Below are positions 16,575 to 49,896 of a stretch of 64,000 nt of DNA, piece by piece (the stretch's first letter is position 1; every line of letters starts with the position of its first letter). The notes below the pieces were generated by a model. The model saw only the letters and a program-made list of their open reading frames with translations. It had not been told where the DNA came from and made no database searches. Both the position numbers and the translations under genes were made by a program. This stretch comes from Longimicrobiales bacterium (GTDB taxonomy: Bacteria; Gemmatimonadota; Gemmatimonadetes; Longimicrobiales; Gaopeijiaceae), in contig CBDFIQ010000001.1 in the NCBI GenBank assembly GCA_965248195.1, positions 608,001-672,000 on the forward strand. The letters are read 5' to 3'.

Positions 16575-16624
16575 ATACGAGGCACACTGGACCAGCGAGA
16601 TACGAGGCACACTGGACCAGCGAG
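16575..16624. repeat. Perfect 25-bp tandem duplication
   Basis: ATACGAGGCACACTGGACCAGCGAG x2 (16575-16599, 16600-16624). Confidence 0.95.
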
Positions 16625-16824: not shown

Positions 16825-17385
16825 ATGGAGCGGATCGAAGGGGGCGACGATCGGGCCCTGGGCGAGCTCTACGATCGTCATGGTGCCGTGATGTACTCCC
16901 TCGCCAAATCCATCGTCTCGGAGCCAGCAGATGCAGAGGAGGTCGTGGCTGATGCGTTCCTTCAGATCTGGCGTGGGGCCCAGCGGTACGATCGGGGTCG
17001 GGCCTCCGTTGGCGCCTTCCTCGCCGTCGTCACCAGAAGCCGGGCTCTTGACGTGGTGCGCGCGCGGCGGCGGCGTAACGCGGCGGAGGGCCGGGCTGCC
17101 GCCTGGAACGAAGGCTGGCCGGCCGGCGCCCTGTCCGCCTCGGATCCGACCCCGGATCGCGCCCTCGAGCTCAGCGAAACATACGCCGTCGTGCGCCGGG
17201 CGCTCGACGCGCTGCCGGAGTCCCAGAGGGAGGTCATCTTGCTCGCATATTTCGGCGGCTACAGCCAGAGTGAGATCGCGGCTCGACTCTCGGAGCCGCT
17301 CGGTACCGTGAAGACGCGGGTGCGTACTGGAATGCAAAAGCTCCGTGAGGTGCTCTCCCCGTACGCCCCCGGGGTGGAATCGTGA
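16825..17385 (+). CDS. ECF RNA polymerase sigma factor (SigK-like)
   Basis: ALGELYDR, DAEEVV, LP..QREVILLAYFGGYSQSEIA..PLGTVKTR. Confidence 0.92.
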   Translation: MERIEGGDDRALGELYDRHGAVMYSLAKSIVSEPADAEEVVADAFLQIWRGAQRYDRGRASVGAFLAVVTRSRALDVVRARRRRNAAEGRAAAWNEGWPAGALSASDPTPDRALELSETYAVVRRALDALPESQREVILLAYFGGYSQSEIAARLSEPLGTVKTRVRTGMQKLREVLSPYAPGVES

Positions 17386-18203
17386 ACCCGAGGGACTGGA
17401 CGGAGATGACTGCGGCCTACGTCCTGGGCTCCTTGGACCCCGAAGATCGAGCCTCGTTCGAGGAGCGCCTCGCCTCAGATCCCGAGCTCGAGCGTGACGT
17501 AGAATCCTATCGGGAAGTCGTGGGTGGCCTTGCCGGGGCGGCGCCCCTGCATGCGCCGCCCGCGGCCCTGAAGGAACGCATCCTGGTCGAGGCCCGGGGC
17601 CGAATGGAGTCACCGCCGTCGCCTGCGCAGGAGCCTCCTGGGGAATCGCATGGGCGAGGGGCGACGCTCCCTTGGCTGCTAGCCGCCGCCGGGGTTGTCC
17701 TCAGTCTGGGTCTCGGGATCGCCTATCAACGCATGCGAACGGACAACACCTCGCTGCAAATCGCCTACGACCAAGTGGAAACGGATAACGCCTTCCTACG
17801 GATCGCCTACGACCGAGTTGCATCCGATCTCGAAGCCCGTGATTCCCTCCTCGCGACGTTCCTCGGGCCCGACGTGCGAACGGCGACCCTGGCGGCGACC
17901 GGTCGACCTCCGTCCGCCCGGCTGTTCTGGAACACCACCACCGGCTCGGTCGTGATGGCGGCGTTCGACCTACCGCCGGCCGCGGCCGGCCGCATTTATC
18001 AGCTCTGGGGGATCGTGACCGGCCTCGACCCAGTGAGCTTCGGTACCTTCCAGACCGGAGCCGACGGGACGGCCATTTTCCGAAGCCCGGTGCCGGAGGG
18101 CATCGAATTCGAGCTCGGGGCCGTCACGGAGGAGCCCGCCGGGGGATCGCCCCAGCCGACATCCACACCCTTCCTTGTCGGAGCCTGGTCCACAGCGCTA
18201 TAG
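17382..18203 (+). CDS. Anti-sigma factor, RskA-like
   Basis: AAYVLGSL N-terminus, one TM helix, LPP..YQLW, AVTEEPAGGSPQPT; overlaps the sigma stop codon. Confidence 0.9.
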   Translation: MNPRDWTEMTAAYVLGSLDPEDRASFEERLASDPELERDVESYREVVGGLAGAAPLHAPPAALKERILVEARGRMESPPSPAQEPPGESHGRGATLPWLLAAAGVVLSLGLGIAYQRMRTDNTSLQIAYDQVETDNAFLRIAYDRVASDLEARDSLLATFLGPDVRTATLAATGRPPSARLFWNTTTGSVVMAAFDLPPAAAGRIYQLWGIVTGLDPVSFGTFQTGADGTAIFRSPVPEGIEFELGAVTEEPAGGSPQPTSTPFLVGAWSTAL

Positions 18204-18505
18204 AAGGCTATTGAAGGAGTACAGCGGGTCGCGCACAGGGCGCTTGTGCGCGTTCAGACAAGGAACGACGACGAGGCGTAGCAACGCTACGGCGAGGAGG
18301 AGAGACGCAGGATCAACCGCACAACCGCCCTGTGCCCTCCACCATCTAGGGCATGACCTTACACGTTGGTGGGTTGCGGTGGCACGGCCCCATCTCCGTT
18401 GTTGGAGCTCCTAGCCGTAGCGAATGCTATGGCGTCGTCGCTCCGCCTAGGAGCTAGGACCGTGGCATCCGCAACGCGGCCCACTGTACTCCTTCAATAG
18501 CCTTC
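18203..18505 (+). repeat. Structured ~305-nt repeat element (MITE-like or ncRNA), copy 1
   Basis: Perfect 22-bp terminal IR GAAGGCTATTGAAGGAGTACAG (18203-18224 / 18484-18505); core closely matches 37964-38222 on the minus strand. Confidence 0.88.
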
Positions 18506-18517
18506 CGATCCAACCAC

Positions 18518-18543
18518 CAATCCGACTGGCGTCGACGGGCGTA
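18518..18543 (+). promoter_or_regulatory. Putative SigK-type ECF promoter of the DUF4331 operon
   Basis: CAATCC-N16-CGTA upstream of 18602, next to a SigK/RskA-like pair. Confidence 0.45.
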
Positions 18544-18601
18544 GAGACGATGAAGTCTCGCGTCCGTTTTTTATTTCTCGCTATGGAAGGGGCTGGATCA
18601 A

Positions 18602-19336
18602 ATGAACGAATCCGCTTATCGACCCCGGATCCTCGTCATCGCGCTTGCGATCGCGGGGTTGCTCGCCGCACATGCCGTGATCAAGGCGGCGGACCACGCC
18701 GACTCACCCGACACGTCGGAGGGCAATCTCGACGTGAACGACCTCTATGTCTTCAACCAGGGGGACAACGTCGTCTTCGCGATGACGGTAAGCCCCCTGC
18801 TCGCGCCCGGTGCGTCCACCTCGGGCGCCGCCTTCAACCCGAACGGTCTGTACCAGTTCAAGCTCGATCGTGAGCGCGACGGGATCGAGGAGGCGGTGAT
18901 CCAGATCGTCGTCTCCGGAGAAGGCACGGACCAGCGGGTCGACGTGCGAGGTCCGGTGGCCGCTGCAGTGACCGGAACCACCAACAACGTGCTGGCGGCT
19001 GCTCCGTCGGCTCGAGGCCCGTTCAACAACACCTTCTCGGCCGAGGGTCTGACCGTGTTCGCGGGGCCGCGGGATGACCCCTTCTTCATCGATCTATTCG
19101 GTGACGAAAGCCTCACGAGCGTGCTCAACGCCGTGTTCTCGGCCACTCTGGGCGAGACGGTCGGGAGCGCCGACGAGCAGACGCTCGCGTTCGCGGACCC
19201 GGCCGTGGACGACCTCGCCGGACTGAACGTTCTGGCAATCGTCGTAGAGGTGCCCAAGTCGATGGTGGCCGAAGCCCTGGGCATCGGGCTCTCGGACTCG
19301 TTCTTCGCATGGGCAACCACCAGCATCCGCCAGTGA
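18602..19336 (+). CDS. DUF4331-family protein (N-terminal-half type), exported
   Basis: ADHADSP..DVNDLYVF, VFAGPRDDPFF, AGLNVLAIVVEVP, WATTS. Confidence 0.85.
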   Translation: MNESAYRPRILVIALAIAGLLAAHAVIKAADHADSPDTSEGNLDVNDLYVFNQGDNVVFAMTVSPLLAPGASTSGAAFNPNGLYQFKLDRERDGIEEAVIQIVVSGEGTDQRVDVRGPVAAAVTGTTNNVLAAAPSARGPFNNTFSAEGLTVFAGPRDDPFFIDLFGDESLTSVLNAVFSATLGETVGSADEQTLAFADPAVDDLAGLNVLAIVVEVPKSMVAEALGIGLSDSFFAWATTSIRQ

Positions 19337-23588: not shown

Positions 23589-23676
23589 TCCCTGTCTGGA
23601 CGCGCACCATCGCCGGGGCACCCACGCCGCCAGGCGTGGGTCGCACGACCCGCCGTACTCTTTCAACAGCCTTCTG
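23585..23676 (-). repeat. Partial, diverged third copy (5' end) of the structured repeat
   Basis: Revcomp AGAAGGCTGTTGAAAGAGTACGGCGGGTCG...GTGCGCGTCCAGACAGGGA versus copy 1 AGAAGGCTATTGAAGGAGTACAGCGGGTCG...GTGCGCGTTCAGACAAGGA. Confidence 0.7.
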
Positions 23677-35095: not shown

Positions 35096-37936
35096 CTAAC
35101 CCTTCGTCTCGAACCAGCTCTCTCCCACACCTCCCTCGACCACCAGCGGAACGCAGAGCTCCATCGCACCCTCCATCGCCGACACCACCACCTCGGCAAG
35201 AGCGTCTTCTTCGCCACGCGGCACCTCGAAGAGCAGCTCGTCATGGACCTGAAGCAGAAGACGGGCCCCCGTTTCCACCTCGGCCAACGCACGGGTCACG
35301 TCAAGCATCGCCTTCTTGATCATGTCCGCCGCCGTGCCCTGGATGGGCGTGTTCTGGGCGACTCGTTCCCCGAACTGGCGGACGTTCCAGTTCTTGGCTT
35401 GCAGCTCCGGGATGTGGCGCCGCCGCCCCATGAGGGTCTCGACGAAGCCCTTCTCGTGAGCACTCGCCACCTGCTCATCTAGATAGGCCCGCACACCGCT
35501 GAAGCGCTCGAAGTACTGATCGATGAACACCTTCGCCTCTTCGCGGCCGATGCCGAGCTGTCGGGCGAGCGAAAACGCACCTTGTCCATACAGGGTGGCG
35601 AAGTTGATCGTCTTCGCCTGGCCCCGCTGCTCGGACGTCACCCGGTCGAGGGGAATGTCGAAGACCACGGCGGCGGTCTGCTTATGGACGTCGATCCCGC
35701 TCCTGAACGCTCGGACCAGGGGCTCATCCCCGGAGAAGTGCGCCAGGATTCGCAGCTCGACCTGGGAATAGTCCGCTCCGTAGAACAGGTAACCCTCCGC
35801 AGGGATGAATCCCTTCCGGATCTCCCGCCCCAAGTCCGTTCGTATCGGGATGTTCTGAAGATTGGGATCGCTCGACGAGAGCCGCCCCGTGGCCGCCACC
35901 GTTTGATTGAAGCGGGTGTGGATCCTGCCCGTTCGTGGAAGCACCAACTGGGGCAGCGCGTCCACATAGGTCGAGCGGAGCTTCTCCAGCTCCCGGTACT
36001 CCATCATGAGCCGGGGAATCTCGTGCCCCTGTATCGCGAGCTCTTCCAAGACCGAGGAGTCCGTGGAGGGACCCGTCTTCGTCCGCTTGATCACGGGGAG
36101 TCCCTGCTGTTCGAAAAGGATCTCACGTAGTTGCGGTGTGGAGTTCAGATTGAATTCCGACCCGGCGACTTTGTAGATCTCGTCCCGGATGAGCGTCAGA
36201 TCGCGTTCCAGACGCTCGCTCATCGTCAGGAAGAAGGCCGGATCGATGCGTATTCCCTCCTGCTCCATCCCAACCAGAACCGGCAGGAGCGGCATCTCCA
36301 AGTTCTCGAAGAGTCCGGCAAGCCCTTGGGCTGCAAGATCTACGGCGGAGAGTTCCGCCAGGCGGAGCGCGGCATCGACGCCCTGAGCCGCATAGTCCCG
36401 TGCCTTCTCCTGGTCCACCTCTGAAAAGCTGATCCTTTTCTGGCCCGTCCCGACTACGTCGTTGTAGGGCGTGCGGGAAAAATCGAGGGAATCCTGGCAG
36501 AGCGCATCCAGATCGTGTTTCCGCCGGCCCGGGTCGAGCACGTAGGACGCGAGGGTCACATCGAAGGTCATCCCCCTGAGGCGGACGCCCACTCGGGCCA
36601 GAGACAGCGCCGACGCCTTCAGGTCGGCCCCTAGCTTCTCGACGCCGGGATCCTCCAGGAGATCGACCAGGGCGGCGAGAGCGTCGTGTCCCATTTCAGG
36701 AAGATTGGCGATCCCGGACGATTCGAACGCTAGCGTTGGCTCCCCGTGAGGCACGTGACCGAAGGAGAGATAGAAGGCCTCGCCCACGTCCACCGCCAGC
36801 GCGAGGCCAACCAAACCAGCTCGATGCGGATCGAGGAAAGCATTTTGTACCCCGAGGGCCACCCGACCTACCTCGCGGGCCCGACCGACCAACGCCCCGA
36901 TATCGTCCGGCTCGGTGACCAGGTGGCAACGAACCGGTGGGGGCCCGCCCGTCGCCGTGGACGCCGGACCGGCCGCATTATCACCGGGAAGCGAATCGGG
37001 ATCGGCATCATCCTTGACCGCCTGGCCAGGACCTCGAGCCCCTCCGGGCGCGAAGCGCTCCATGAGACGACGAAATTCCATCTCGGCGAAGAACCGGTGA
37101 AGCCTGGGACGATCGGGCTCCCGCACCTGCAGCGCCTCCAGGTCCAACTCGACCTCGAGGTCCGTCATGAGCGTCACGAGCTTCCTGGAGAGTCGAACCT
37201 GGTCCGCATTCTCCTCGAGCGACTCCCGCACACGCTTAGCGGAGATGTCGCTCGCGTGCTTGAGAATCTCGTCGAGGCTCCCGTACTCATCGAGGAGCTT
37301 GAGAGCCGTTTTCGGCCCAACGCCCGGGGCTCCGGGAATGTTGTCAGAGGAGTCCCCGATCAGGGCCAAGTAGTCGATTACCTTGCTCGCCGGAATGCCG
37401 AATTTCTCGTGGGCATTACGCTCGTCCACCCATTCGGCCTCCACACCCGTGCGTCCGCCGCGCCCGGGGTTCAGGAGGTGGATACCGGGTCCCACGAGCT
37501 GATAGAGGTCCTTGTCGCCGGAAACGATGACGGCTTCGAGTCCCGCATCCCTCGCCTTGATCGCCAGAGTGCCGATCACGTCATCAGCCTCATAGCCGTC
37601 CAATTCGACTAGGGCGTCATTGAACGCCGCCACGAGCTCGCGCACGCGGGGCAAACTGGCCCTGAGCTCATCGGGCATCTTCTCCCGGGTCGCCTTGTAG
37701 TCCGGGTATATCTTTTCCCGGTCGCTATTTCCGGCGTCGAACACCACCGCAAGATAGTCGGGTTGATATTTGTCACGGATCTCGATCAGGAAGTTCGCGA
37801 ACCCGAAGGGGGCGGACGTGTTCTCCCCCTTCGAGTTGGTGAGGGGGCGGCGAATGAAGGCGAAGAACGCGCGGTAAATCAGCGCGTAGGCATCGATAAG
37901 GAAGAGACGGGGCGCCTTCTTCGGTGGGACGTCCAT
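35096..37936 (-). CDS. polA: DNA polymerase I
   Basis: 5'-3' exonuclease motifs (YKATR, EADD, GDSSDNIPG); polymerase motifs DYSQVELR, KTINF..YG, QVHDEL. Confidence 0.98.
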   Translation of the reverse strand: MDVPPKKAPRLFLIDAYALIYRAFFAFIRRPLTNSKGENTSAPFGFANFLIEIRDKYQPDYLAVVFDAGNSDREKIYPDYKATREKMPDELRASLPRVRELVAAFNDALVELDGYEADDVIGTLAIKARDAGLEAVIVSGDKDLYQLVGPGIHLLNPGRGGRTGVEAEWVDERNAHEKFGIPASKVIDYLALIGDSSDNIPGAPGVGPKTALKLLDEYGSLDEILKHASDISAKRVRESLEENADQVRLSRKLVTLMTDLEVELDLEALQVREPDRPRLHRFFAEMEFRRLMERFAPGGARGPGQAVKDDADPDSLPGDNAAGPASTATGGPPPVRCHLVTEPDDIGALVGRAREVGRVALGVQNAFLDPHRAGLVGLALAVDVGEAFYLSFGHVPHGEPTLAFESSGIANLPEMGHDALAALVDLLEDPGVEKLGADLKASALSLARVGVRLRGMTFDVTLASYVLDPGRRKHDLDALCQDSLDFSRTPYNDVVGTGQKRISFSEVDQEKARDYAAQGVDAALRLAELSAVDLAAQGLAGLFENLEMPLLPVLVGMEQEGIRIDPAFFLTMSERLERDLTLIRDEIYKVAGSEFNLNSTPQLREILFEQQGLPVIKRTKTGPSTDSSVLEELAIQGHEIPRLMMEYRELEKLRSTYVDALPQLVLPRTGRIHTRFNQTVAATGRLSSSDPNLQNIPIRTDLGREIRKGFIPAEGYLFYGADYSQVELRILAHFSGDEPLVRAFRSGIDVHKQTAAVVFDIPLDRVTSEQRGQAKTINFATLYGQGAFSLARQLGIGREEAKVFIDQYFERFSGVRAYLDEQVASAHEKGFVETLMGRRRHIPELQAKNWNVRQFGERVAQNTPIQGTAADMIKKAMLDVTRALAEVETGARLLLQVHDELLFEVPRGEEDALAEVVVSAMEGAMELCVPLVVEGGVGESWFETKG

Positions 37937-37938
37937 CG

Positions 37939-38247
37939 CTAGGAGGGTGATCGGAAAGGGGGGTGGGCCGCGTTGCGGATGCCACGGCCCCAGCTCCTAG
38001 GCGGAGCGACGACGCCATAGCCGTAGCTATGGCTAGGAACTCCAACAACGGAGATGGGGTCGTGCCACCGCAACCCTTCGACGTGTAAGGTCATGCCCTT
38101 CATGATCGTGGGCACATGGCGGTTGCGCGGTTGATCCTGCGTCTCTCCTCGTCGCCGTAGACGGACTACGACTCCTCGTCGTTCCTTGTCTGAACGTGCG
38201 CAAGCGCCATGTGCGCGACCCGCCCCCCTTTCCGATCACCCTTCTAG
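37939..38247 (-). repeat. Structured ~305-nt repeat element, copy 2
   Basis: CTAG-bounded; perfect 20-bp IR AGGGTGATCGGAAAGGGGGG (37944-37963 / 38223-38242); core homologous to 18225-18483. Confidence 0.88.
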
Positions 38248-38396: not shown

Positions 38397-38597
38397 TCAG
38401 GCCCTGACTACATTGGTGGCCCGGTATCCATTCTCGGTCTCCGCCAACTCGAACTCCACTTCCTCGCCCTCTGTCAGGGTGCGAAAGCCATCGGTGATGA
38501 TAGCTGAGAAGTGGACAAACAGGTCATCGCCCTCGGGACGAGCGATAAACCCATACCCTCTGCTATCGCTGAACCATTTAACGGTCCCTTTCGACAT
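38397..38597 (-). CDS. Cold-shock protein (CspA family)
   Basis: [37 protein letters not shown]. Confidence 0.95.
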
Positions 38598-38693
38598 GCG
38601 GCCTACTCCTTCTGCGGCACGGAACGATGGTTCGTCACGCCCAGGGCGTTGCGTCCGACCGAGGGCCGTGACCGGGTCTGGCGACCCGCACCT

Positions 38694-46352: not shown

Positions 46353-48068
46353 TCACTGTTCGGCGGAAATCCACCAATCCTTGATGTTCTGCCATTCCCC
46401 GCGCGAATCCATCTCCACGCCGTTAAGCTTCTTGCTCACGCCATCGAGCCGGTCCGGAAAGGAGAAAAAAGTATAAGGCTGCTCGTCCACCAGAAGTTCC
46501 TGGTATTGCGCCCAAAGCGGCTTGGCCTCGTCACGGTCGACAACCAGGGGTAACTCGTCGAGGAACTTGTCGATATCCGGGCGCCGCGTCCCGGCCCAAG
46601 CATAGGGGCCAGAAAGACTTTGGCTATGAAGGAGGTCCGTATCGTCCAACTTGAACTCGCCCACCCACCCCATGACCACACCGTCGAAATCCCGACGCAC
46701 CGGGTCGTTGATCTGGCTGAGGAGGGTAAGCCACTCGACCACGGTCGGCGTGACCTCGACGCCAATCTCGGCTAGCTGCGCCTGCATGATCTCCGCGATA
46801 CCCTGCCGGATATCGTTCCCGTCATTGTACTTTATGGAGATGGAGAGCCGATCCCCGTCGGAGTTCTCACGAACGCCGTCTCCGTCCCGATCCACCCAGC
46901 CCGCGGCATCGAGCAGAGCCCTGGCACCATTCGGATCGTACGCCCAGTGGAATGGGGGGACGCTCCCGTTCGCCACCCTCCCATGACCCTGCAACAGAGC
47001 ATCCACGATCTCCTGCCGGTTCGTGCCCTTCGTCAGGGCTCGGCGCACCCTCTTGTCGGCCAGCTGTGGGCGGCGAGAATTCCACGCAATGAGATCGTAC
47101 TGCCGGAACACATACTGCCTGAGCTCTGCGGCATCCGAATCAATGATGGCCTGGGCCTGATCGGGCGTGGGAGCGATGTAAACATCCAACCGCTCGGTCA
47201 GCAACTCTGTGAGGAGGGTCGTCTGCTCGCTGATGGTGCGGTTGACGTAGCGATCGAGGTAAGGGCGGCCGCCGAGGGCATCGGGAAACGCCGGGTTCGC
47301 CTGGAAGGTCCAGCTCGCGTCTTGCCGGTGCTCCACGAATACGAACGGTCCATTGCCAACCGGGCAGACCGTACCATAGGGATGCTGACTCAGCATCGTG
47401 GCGGGGACGTCGCCGAGCAGATGCTCGGGCATGATCGCCACGGCCCGCCAGGGATCGATGAAGTCTGCATGGGGCCGCATCCGAAACCTCACCGTGAACG
47501 AGTCGACCACCTCCACGCCGGCCGGCCCGCGGTCGTAATAGGTCCAGAACGTCGCGTTCGGAAAAGCCGTCTCGGGATCGATCGCACGCTCGTACGTAAA
47601 CGCGACATCGTACGCATCCGTGAGCTCACCGTCGTGCCAGTAGACGTCGTCTCGAATGTGAAACGTGAGCTCGGTCCCGTTGTCCGACACCTCCCAGGAT
47701 TCGGCTAGATACGGTGTCGCAATCCAATTCTCGTCGTACTGCACCAAGGTCATGAGGTTGACGAAATTCTGGTGCTGCTCCGCGGTATAGTCCGTAGAGA
47801 TGAGGCCATTCATCCCGGCCGGAATCTCGCCGATGTTACCCACGACCGCCGTGCCACCATAACGCGCGGACGGTGGCATCTGCCCCTCGAACTGAGACAT
47901 GAACGCCGAGACGTTGGCCGTGACCTCCTCACAAAACGGGATACCCGCCCCGGCCTGGGCCAACGAGGCTTCCAGCATCCAGGGTCCGGCTTCAAGGGAG
48001 GCCCCACCTTCGCCGCCCCGACATGCTCCCATCAACACGGCCGTCCCAACCGCTAGAATCGTCCTCAT
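46353..48068 (-). CDS. ABC transporter family-5 substrate-binding lipoprotein (paralog 1)
   Basis: Lipobox MGAC; PYLAESWEVS, WHDG..TDAYDV, PVGNGPF, DRDGDGVRE. Confidence 0.9.
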   Translation of the reverse strand: MRTILAVGTAVLMGACRGGEGGASLEAGPWMLEASLAQAGAGIPFCEEVTANVSAFMSQFEGQMPPSARYGGTAVVGNIGEIPAGMNGLISTDYTAEQHQNFVNLMTLVQYDENWIATPYLAESWEVSDNGTELTFHIRDDVYWHDGELTDAYDVAFTYERAIDPETAFPNATFWTYYDRGPAGVEVVDSFTVRFRMRPHADFIDPWRAVAIMPEHLLGDVPATMLSQHPYGTVCPVGNGPFVFVEHRQDASWTFQANPAFPDALGGRPYLDRYVNRTISEQTTLLTELLTERLDVYIAPTPDQAQAIIDSDAAELRQYVFRQYDLIAWNSRRPQLADKRVRRALTKGTNRQEIVDALLQGHGRVANGSVPPFHWAYDPNGARALLDAAGWVDRDGDGVRENSDGDRLSISIKYNDGNDIRQGIAEIMQAQLAEIGVEVTPTVVEWLTLLSQINDPVRRDFDGVVMGWVGEFKLDDTDLLHSQSLSGPYAWAGTRRPDIDKFLDELPLVVDRDEAKPLWAQYQELLVDEQPYTFFSFPDRLDGVSKKLNGVEMDSRGEWQNIKDWWISAEQ

Positions 48069-48120: not shown

Positions 48121-49896
48121 CTACCGCGCTCCGCGCCTCCGCTCATCGGACGGGATCCACCAGTCCTTCAGATTCACCCATTCGCCACGAATGTCCAATA
48201 CCTCGCCCCGGATTCGCCGGTTCACGCCCGACAACCGATCCAAGTTGTAGAGAAATGTGAAAGGCTGCTCGTCTATCAGGGATTCTTGGTACGCGTCCCA
48301 CGCCGCCTCGGCGGCCGCGAGGTCCAGAATCAACGGAAGTTGCTCCAGCTGGTCGTCGAGGTCCTCGCGTTGCGTGCCGGACATGGCGAAAGGAAAGTCA
48401 AGTTGTCCGCTGTGAAACAGGGGAGTGTCATCTAGCCTGAAGTCCGGCGTCCAAGTCATCATCACGCCGTCGAAATCCCTGGAGTCCGCGGCGAAAACCT
48501 GCTGGGACAGGGTCGACCCATCCACCGGCATTGGAACCGCCTCGACGCCGATCGAGCCGAGCTGAGCCTGCATGGCTTCCGCGATGTCGTGGCGCACCCG
48601 GATCGAGGTGAACTTGATCGTGAGCGAGAGGCGGACGCCGTCAGCGCTCTCCCGCACCCCGTCACCGTCCCGGTCAATCCATCCGGCTTCATCCAGCAGC
48701 GCCCTGGCGGCCGCTGGATCGTATGCCAGCGCATCTGCTCCCAGGGACGCATCGTAATACGGATGGAAGGGGGGTACTGTCCCGTTCGCAACGACGCCGT
48801 ACCCACCGAGGAGACCCGCCACGATCTCCTCGCGGTTCGTCCCCTTCGTAATCGCCATCCGAACCCTCTTGTCCGCGAGTTGTGGACGGCGGGAGTTCCA
48901 AGCGACAAAGGCGAAGGTCCGACCGGGAAAGCGGTACAATTCGATTGCGTCCGACGCGAGAATTGTCGCCGCCTGGTCAGGCGTAGGGGAGACATACGCG
49001 TCTAGGTTTTCCGTCAGCAACTCGGTCAAAAGCGCAGTTTGATCGGTCACGATCCGATATACGTACCGGTCGAGGTACGGTCGGCCTCCTAGTCCCTCTG
49101 GAAACGCCGGGTTCGCCTGAAAAGTCCAGCTCGCGCCCTGTCGATGCTCCACGAAGATGAACGGCCCGTTACCTACCGGACACACCGATCCGTATGGGTG
49201 CGCCCGCAACTCCGCCGCGGGCACGTCCTCCACCAGATGTTGCGGCATGATGGCCAACACCGTCCACAGATCCATGAAATCCGCGTGCGGCGTCATACGA
49301 ACGCGGACGGTCAGAGGATCGATCACCTCCACCGCACCCGGCCCCGTCTCCACGTACGTCCACCAGCCATCGTTCGGAAAGGCCGTCGCCGGGTCGGCGG
49401 CACGCTCCACCGTGTACGCCACATCGTAAGCGTCAGTCAGTTCGCCGTCGTGCCAGTAAACGTCGTCCCGCAGGTGGAAGGTGAGCTCCGTGCCGTCGGT
49501 CGACACCTCCCAGGATTCGGCCAGGTACGGTGCCGGGTTCAACTCCCGGTCATATCGGACGAGCGTCATGAGGTTGACGAACATCTGGTGATGCTGGCTT
49601 TGATACAGAGCGACGATATGGGCATTCATCCCACCGAACATTTCACTCGGTTGGCCCACTACTGCCGTGCCGCCATACCGGTTCGATGAAGGCTCCTGCC
49701 CCTTGAAGCGACCCATGAACGCAGCGACCCCGGCCATGGCCTCGTCACAGAAGGGGATGCCCGTTCCCGCCTCCAAGACGGAGGGATCCAGGGCCCATGG
49801 AGAGGCTCCGGCGAACGGCGAGCGCCCGTCACGGCACGCACTCGCCCCCACAGCCGCGAGCGCGAGCATCGTCGGGACGCACCAAGTTTTTCTCAT
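48121..49896 (-). CDS. ABC transporter family-5 substrate-binding lipoprotein (paralog 2)
   Basis: Lipobox ASAC; same motifs; clearly a tandem paralog of 46353-48068. Confidence 0.9.
   Translation of the reverse strand: MRKTWCVPTMLALAAVGASACRDGRSPFAGASPWALDPSVLEAGTGIPFCDEAMAGVAAFMGRFKGQEPSSNRYGGTAVVGQPSEMFGGMNAHIVALYQSQHHQMFVNLMTLVRYDRELNPAPYLAESWEVSTDGTELTFHLRDDVYWHDGELTDAYDVAYTVERAADPATAFPNDGWWTYVETGPGAVEVIDPLTVRVRMTPHADFMDLWTVLAIMPQHLVEDVPAAELRAHPYGSVCPVGNGPFIFVEHRQGASWTFQANPAFPEGLGGRPYLDRYVYRIVTDQTALLTELLTENLDAYVSPTPDQAATILASDAIELYRFPGRTFAFVAWNSRRPQLADKRVRMAITKGTNREEIVAGLLGGYGVVANGTVPPFHPYYDASLGADALAYDPAAARALLDEAGWIDRDGDGVRESADGVRLSLTIKFTSIRVRHDIAEAMQAQLGSIGVEAVPMPVDGSTLSQQVFAADSRDFDGVMMTWTPDFRLDDTPLFHSGQLDFPFAMSGTQREDLDDQLEQLPLILDLAAAEAAWDAYQESLIDEQPFTFLYNLDRLSGVNRRIRGEVLDIRGEWVNLKDWWIPSDERRRGAR

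Follow-up and report, generated by a model that had tools for sequence, protein, structure and literature searches.

Two copies of a 303-nt element lie in the window, the 64,000-nt stretch of Longimicrobiales DNA analysed here, and they raise the question of how the two ends of such an element, 259 nt apart, can stay complementary to each other while their sequence drifts. The repeat, first noticed from the letters alone, was confirmed in the window: copy 1 occupies positions 18203..18505 on the plus strand and copy 2 positions 37942..38244 on the minus strand, 303 nt each. Both copies start with TAGAAGG, followed by a 17-mer and then by CGGGTCGCG, and the original prediction was right that the two 17-mers agree at 5 of 17 positions and that the core is conserved between the copies (230 of 259 nucleotides identical). 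It had also held that each 17-mer pairs perfectly with its own copy's other end; the full 22-nt arms pair at 22/22 positions in copy 1 and at 21 of 22 in copy 2, with the mismatch outside the 17-mer. The folding z-scores are −10.3 for copy 1 and −10.4 for copy 2, and none of 100 shuffled sequences folded equally well. There is no ORF of at least 100 aa inside the element; a 34-codon internal ORF, identified by eye in the copy alignment A2 described below, has lost its start codon in several copies.

In copy 1 the ends are of what we call type A. Its left terminal inverted repeat (TIR; 18203..18224, plus strand) carries the variant G8A, which is mirrored in the right one (18484..18505, plus strand), and the terminal stem has an imperfect inner extension, in which 18225..18233 (plus strand) pairs with 18475–18483. 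The remainder of the predicted Y-shaped fold, also on the plus strand, consists of a left internal stem-loop (18233..18335), whose interior is purine-rich and whose tip reads GTAGC..GCTAC, a central linker (18336..18372) and a right internal stem-loop (18373..18475). The linker is the most variable part (12.6%), and several distant homologues retain just a few bases of it; the left stem-loop has a site after CAGACAAG, near 18262, that holds a 65-nt module in other copies and an IS110 in the locus L104. Copy 2 has the ends that we call type B, with its left TIR at 38223..38244 and its right TIR at 37942..37963, both on the minus strand. The flanking host genes lie outside the element. Copy 1 is placed between an anti-sigma factor gene (17382..18203, plus strand), whose TAG stop is completed by the first G of the left arm, and an ORF; copy 2 lies, co-oriented, between the genes for a cold-shock protein (38397..38600, minus strand) and DNA polymerase I (polA; 35096..37936, minus strand).

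The genome that holds the window (G000, 91.8% complete) has 27 core matches and 24 two-armed copies, 20 of type A and four of type B. The 17-mers had been taken to be copy-specific, but these 24 copies show only two end types, and the seven distinct 17-mers among them are point variants of types A and B. The 17-mers are thus subfamily-specific, and the 5/17 contrast between copies 1 and 2 arose because two end subfamilies were being compared. Arms that are copy-specific because they derive from the target are ruled out by the same finding of two end types genome-wide. Subtypes are known from Correia ends as well. G000 also holds further single arms and short hairpin remnants, about 29 in all; among the matches listed, the single arms do not lie beside transposase-like ORFs, as judged by eye. 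The window itself contains a third type A arm, truncated and together with the beginning of the core, at 23643–23675 on the minus strand (C1:631643–631675 in the genome).

Each of the 11 other genus genomes has the element, as do 21 of the 41 genomes searched, and a phylum-wide sample of 301 genomes gave matches in 21; records of the type B end come mostly from Gemmatimonadota or Longimicrobiales. Its placement is intergenic, with genes called by our own codon model. Longer copies carry optional hairpin modules of 18–66 nt at fixed positions (about 32, 57, 82, 120, 189, 243 and 267), which recur across genomes and in G000 are found in copies of 321–406 nt (for example C2:1415133–1415538). These modules may be a second, smaller mobile unit.

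Comparison with related genomes makes it clear that the element is an insertion, one that comes and goes freely at individual sites. In G011 the polA site is unoccupied and has one CTAG; when filled, it shows CTAG at either junction: at 38244..38247, the left junction, which includes the terminal G of copy 2, and at 37939..37942, the right junction, which includes its terminal C and represents the target duplication. For copy 1 the empty allele was found in the DNA runs, with GTA in place of ATA, the 303-nt element and CG (net +2), so that its right flank is CG where TA is expected. Many of the relatives' copies, among the matches listed, are at sites that are empty in G000, and the net length gain at empty sites is 0 to +3, an imprecise figure with flanks that are about 80–90% identical. 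Empty-site alleles, which the original prediction had proposed to look for, are therefore at hand for both window copies and bear out its mobile structured unit. The empty sites have no arms, which rules out that the element entered the loop of a hairpin already present. Apart from one pair of loci with the same junctions, the other intergenic regions shared between genomes look like independent insertions.

The target duplication is unevenly visible in the two subfamilies. Of the 13 type B copies, four have CTAG and six have TA on both sides; of the 70 type A copies, none has CTAG and six have TA on both sides. Counted by single ends, CTAG is present at 15/26 in type B and at 20/140 in type A. 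The direct repeats of MITEs are described as expected to decay with age (PMC10969869), and most type A insertions may be old enough for their duplications to have decayed. However, repeat decay does not fully account for the changed right flank of copy 1, which was seen in a close strain.

At the polA site a type A arm remnant is also present in G005 and G006, and a shorter one in G004. In G006 (L257) and G005 (L259) this lone remnant ends in GAAGGAA directly before the polA start codon (the equivalent position in the window is about 37937–37960), and it could act as the polA ribosome-binding site. Several other lone arms also precede a start codon. In another locus of G006 (L040:1215–1270) the CTAG next to a type B arm is where an IS1182-like element starts, and in L378:2150–2220 a type A remnant and a short type B element meet at a CTAG; it seems that the elements insert at each other's flanks.

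These CTAG flanks are shared with an IS1182-like transposon family found in 24 of 301 class genomes, in which 40 of 44 ends follow CTAG. Some members of IS1182 are known for such a CTAG preference. The name IS1182-like was chosen because the transposases are best matched by NF033551, with 204.8, 187.4, 165.5 and 186.4 bits, and yet all fall below its 270-bit cut-off. In register, the transposon ends agree with arm A at 9–13 of 17 positions, and with the closest natural A variant at up to 15 of 17; a search of 45,463 genomic 17-mers after TAG found 17 with at least 13 matches to the transposon end, the element's own arms included. The fit is closest for homologues of the element in G220 and G281, the ends of which are identical over 15/15 nt to the transposon end in L281 and match 13/15 with the one in L279, a locus that lies in G281 itself. 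The cores of these homologues score 97–274, compared with a null maximum of 58, and their ends have 38 and 43 matches in the two genomes, compared with 0 for a reversed-pattern control. TIR sharing with an autonomous IS is therefore seen for the G220/G281 homologue and for type A, whereas type B ends fit the IS1182-like ends poorly (6–8/17). The suggestion that the ends are not read as sequence is not supported by this comparison, since they stand in register with IS1182-like ends after CTAG, as in an ordinary MITE.

A resident partner was looked for in G000 (91.8% complete), where no transposase with matching ends, no DUF772 and no DDE_Tnp_1_6 were found; its repeats of at least 500 bp, with one representative per length class, include no other element with matching ends either. 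The L046-type transposase was found in just one of the 12 genus genomes, and the element is present in all 12. No DUF772 was found in G220, and in 91 loci with the type B end no transposase gene adjoins. A resident 13-copy IS5-type element was rejected as partner, because its GGCCTGTT fits an arm A variant just when shifted by one base; being CTAG-flanked, it is a weak lead. It is about 820 bp long, has a reading frame split at an A-run (for example C2:1541419–1541889), and one of its copies appears to be interrupted by another IS.

The behaviour of the arms was analysed in 83 two-armed copies from eight genomes, the relatives being represented by their copies in the top-scoring 60 regions; seven of 90 candidates, L217 included, lacked two scorable arms, and metagenome and type B pattern matches, which are chosen by exact arm match, were kept out of the counts. 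Changes at 74 arm positions were mirrored in the opposite arm and changes at 33 were one-sided, and no copy (0/83) combined a type A with a type B end. For the 70 type A copies, 62 mirrored positions were observed, compared with a mean of 13.9 and a maximum of 28 in 5,000 within-genome permutations; for type B the excess was weak (12 observed, null mean 7.3, maximum 12). Counted as distinct variants, 22 of 34 were mirrored, and those private to one copy comprised seven mirrored and 11 one-sided variants. Six of the mirrored variants are transversions, mirrored multi-base changes also occur, and L217, checked apart from the 83 copies, has a mirrored indel. In alignment A2, which holds 42 of the 83 copies (297–306 nt, just two from G000 and 35 rows of type A), 18 of the 24 pairs with double changes fall in the terminal helix.

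The ends therefore covary beyond what a split into two subfamilies would give, which supports part of the original prediction. Two fixed end types with no further covariation had been named as the outcome that would count against it: the two types are real, and the covariation within type A is strong. That the termini are less conserved than the core, as had been claimed, was not borne out as a rule: in the type A rows of A2, arms deviate from the majority base at 5.5% and the core at 4.7%. As to the cause, selection on an RNA stem predicts intermediates with G·U pairs on one strand, and none were favoured: one-sided arm mismatches on the plus (mRNA-like) strand comprise 13 G·U and 13 A·C, which argues for copying at the DNA level. 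Inner-stem mismatches are likewise balanced at 25 to 25, although these were taken from pairs common to the folds of both strands, a restriction that leans to symmetry. The mirrored indel and the multi-base cases also favour copying at the DNA level. Among the mechanisms initially suggested, copying from end to end is the best fit, and an RNA or retro mechanism gained no support, with no RVT_1, no Rfam family and no G·U strand bias.

In terms of class, the element has the features of a type II MITE: it is shorter than 500 bp, has 22-nt TIRs, and is multicopy and intergenic with empty sites. We think it probable that it is such a MITE, that DDE transposases of the IS1182/IS5 clan act on it in trans and insert it at CTAG (TA-centred) sites, and that copying between its arms occurs in addition. 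The ends are likely kept identical by copying one arm onto the other in a folded single strand. The outer 15–17 nt would be the transposase-binding site, and the folded interior would bring together the arms 259 nt apart. A template switch during replication, or hairpin repair, could then homogenise them. Template switching has been described as homogenising the arms of inverted repeats, mostly of those with short spacers (PMC5941160, PMC8794818).

The core tree, built from 81 of the 83 copies, shows how ends and cores are combined. The arm types are scattered across it, type B needing nine changes, at least six of them forced by well-supported branches, in a tree whose bootstrap had not settled. 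Such scatter indicates that cores move between A- and B-ended copies, likely by recombination between copies; this could swap the core and reach both edges less often, leaving one core with A or B ends. Other lineages share the core with further end types, one of them intermediate between A and B. A short chimeric A/B remnant, L356, tells against the favoured model. We consider it possible, though doubtful, that the Y-shaped core serves as a conserved chassis able to switch transposase partners, its fold being retained because it doubles as an orientation-specific element in host mRNAs. An end newly gained on one side would then be transferred through the folded element to the other in a single step, so that the two match and suit a different IS. 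If true, this would explain the persistence of the core across Gemmatimonadota with six or more end types, also where a genome has no cognate transposase. Shorter elements, about 165 nt long and with other ends flanked by TAG, were also seen (L304, L306, L310 and L322); they share just a 40–50-nt interior stretch with the 303-nt element.

A transposase that reads just the ends leaves the conservation of the interior stems unexplained, and this conservation is considerable. In the type A core, paired positions vary by 1.5% and unpaired ones by 8.4%. Among 18 diverse homologues (alignment A5, 18 of 27 homologues), 47 of 66 inner pairs of the Y-shaped core have double changes, a count that relatedness inflates; none of 500 shuffles reached it, and it lies above all slid controls. 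The element also follows the direction of transcription in 58 of 63 co-directional gene pairs (own codon model; p about 2 × 10−12, kin not being independent), in 19/19 of those in G000, and in 17 of 18 distant homologues, while its placement on the leading strand is weaker (19/24). Such co-orientation points to a constraint at the RNA level, and the MITE model with arm copying covers it by assumption, in that the bias could reflect selection against having the reverse strand in mRNA, or insertion linked to transcription.

It is on these data that an alternative with the same MITE origin would rest, in which both the mirrored ends and the inner stems are kept by selection for an RNA fold in host mRNAs through compensatory mutation, for example as an RNase III processing or stability element. 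RNase III cleavage has been described at Correia TIRs (PMC10969869). The conserved and covarying inner stems and the transcription-following orientation speak for this alternative, as does the better folding of the plus strand in the diverse alignment (−153.6 versus −140.7). However, the plus strand folds better in just 31 of the 83 single copies, the mismatches of arms and inner stems show no G·U preference on the transcribed strand, and the mirrored transversions, multi-base changes and indel are hard to reach stepwise. Since the element is, in addition, freely gained and lost at given sites, we regard this alternative as unlikely.

The mirrored variants could instead have been inherited, each having arisen once in a master copy that then spread, with no ongoing copying. 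Some variants do recur in several copies, and the copies with G8A partly share a core clade. Inheritance is nonetheless already weakened by the 20 distinct, perfectly mirrored type A haplotypes and the seven private mirrored variants, and also by the same-junction loci of two species, which differ by a mirrored change even though their cores rank first and second within the genome. Moreover, both arms of each master would still have to change. We therefore hold inheritance without copying to be quite improbable.

Copying of the arms might also occur in a REPIN-like element, multiplied through a single-stranded hairpin by an HUH enzyme (RAYT or another Y1/Y2), its symmetry being re-made by end copying. 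The persistent intergenic population, the weak duplications of type A and the many single-arm and short-hairpin remnants would agree with this, and the inner hairpins carry GTAG, which we take to resemble REP ends. REPINs are described as symmetric hairpins with compensatory changes (PMC3116915), persistent and intergenic, in which the doublets are rarely mixed (PMC3116915, 10.1101/119743); a symmetric unit with like ends is found here too, with 0/83 mixed. REPINs, however, depend on the HUH enzyme RAYT, and G000 has no Y1 transposase or RAYT (0 PF01797 matches in that genome), whereas the ends of the 303-nt element match those of DDE transposons and its CTAG duplication is seen. A REPIN-like origin thus seems very unlikely.

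That the element is a discrete structured RNA spreading by reverse transcription, or a small RNA gene, is extremely unlikely: its fold is very stable and RNA-library contigs cover it in 4/4 runs (shares 0.06–0.15), but these contigs sum many copies and organisms without strand or ends, some extend into the flanks, the DNA runs give the same pile-up, G000 has no reverse transcriptase (RVT_1), and 18100–18650 contains no promoter-like or terminator-like site. Rfam 15 has no family for the element, the one chance match (E 0.16) lying outside it, and no hit at gathering score was obtained in four homologue loci.

Since stably folding MITEs are common, the element is ordinary in its basic identity. 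Like the type II bacterial MITEs described in PMC10969869, it is shorter than 500 bp, intergenic and multicopy, with TIRs within 4–30 bp and a stable stem-loop, and it shares with them IS similarity confined to the TIRs, apparently decaying direct repeats and many truncated copies. Unlike those, it is GC-rich by inspection and not AT-rich, one covarying core goes with several end types, its left and right arms change together, and its co-orientation with transcription is strong. The IS1182-like DDE elements of Gemmatimonadota (L046, L264–L293) have the same CTAG flanks and in-register ends, but are autonomous, about 1.5 kb long, imperfect in the match of their left and right ends and absent from the G000 matches. 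By description, and not by sequence, two further elements are similar. One is bcr1 of Bacillus cereus, likewise a non-autonomous repeat, with non-conserved positions and with a cruciform-like fold kept by compensatory changes, which differs in its length of about 155 bp and its 5-bp direct repeats (as given in PMC3184786). The other is Chunjie, a Geobacter uraniireducens MITE, 178–235 bp with 21-bp TIRs, a stable fold and a place within an operon, which differs in being A+T rich and having 9-bp direct repeats (as given in PMC10969869 and PMC3184786). In the literature on Gemmatimonad MITEs, IS1182/CTAG MITEs and Gemmatimonadota palindromic repeats we found no description of the element, which ISfinder or the cMITE catalogue (PMC11602168) may list.

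The family is a natural data set on how two inverted-repeat arms can drift and yet remain identical across 259 nt, and it also bears on how a non-autonomous element survives its transposase or changes to another. It offers concrete candidate pairs of transposase and ends, namely L279 with the copies of G281, and L046 with type A. Covariation without strand preference in such repeats is a caution against calling them structured RNAs, and the transcription-linked orientation suggests a possible effect on operon mRNAs.

The element can itself be a target. The 1.8-kb two-armed locus L104, from a metagenome, was rejected as an autonomous parent, being a copy interrupted by an IS110 (NF033542; L104:421–1915) between CAGACA[AG] and GACCG. 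Among 151 family genomes there was no second IS110 insertion in the element, three relatives lying elsewhere, and the resident IS110 loci L184 and L185 are not inside it. The non-coding end of the L104 IS110 differs from that of the 65%-identical relative L414 in two stretches, and in each of these two IS110 elements the stretches match its own target flanks. This comparison of two elements suggests a putative RNA-guided IS110 aimed at the 303-nt MITE. It resembles the IS621-type IS110 elements that target REP repeats (as described in PMC11208160) in its AG/CT core and its candidate guide stretches, and differs in that its target, in one occurrence, is the interior of the MITE and not a REP.

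Two other repeats were observed in the window. A perfect 25-nt tandem duplication is present at 16575–16624, and the paralogous stretches 46996–47430 and 48812–49246, 1816 nt apart and 70–77% identical, sit in adjacent ORFs of 572 and 591 aa.
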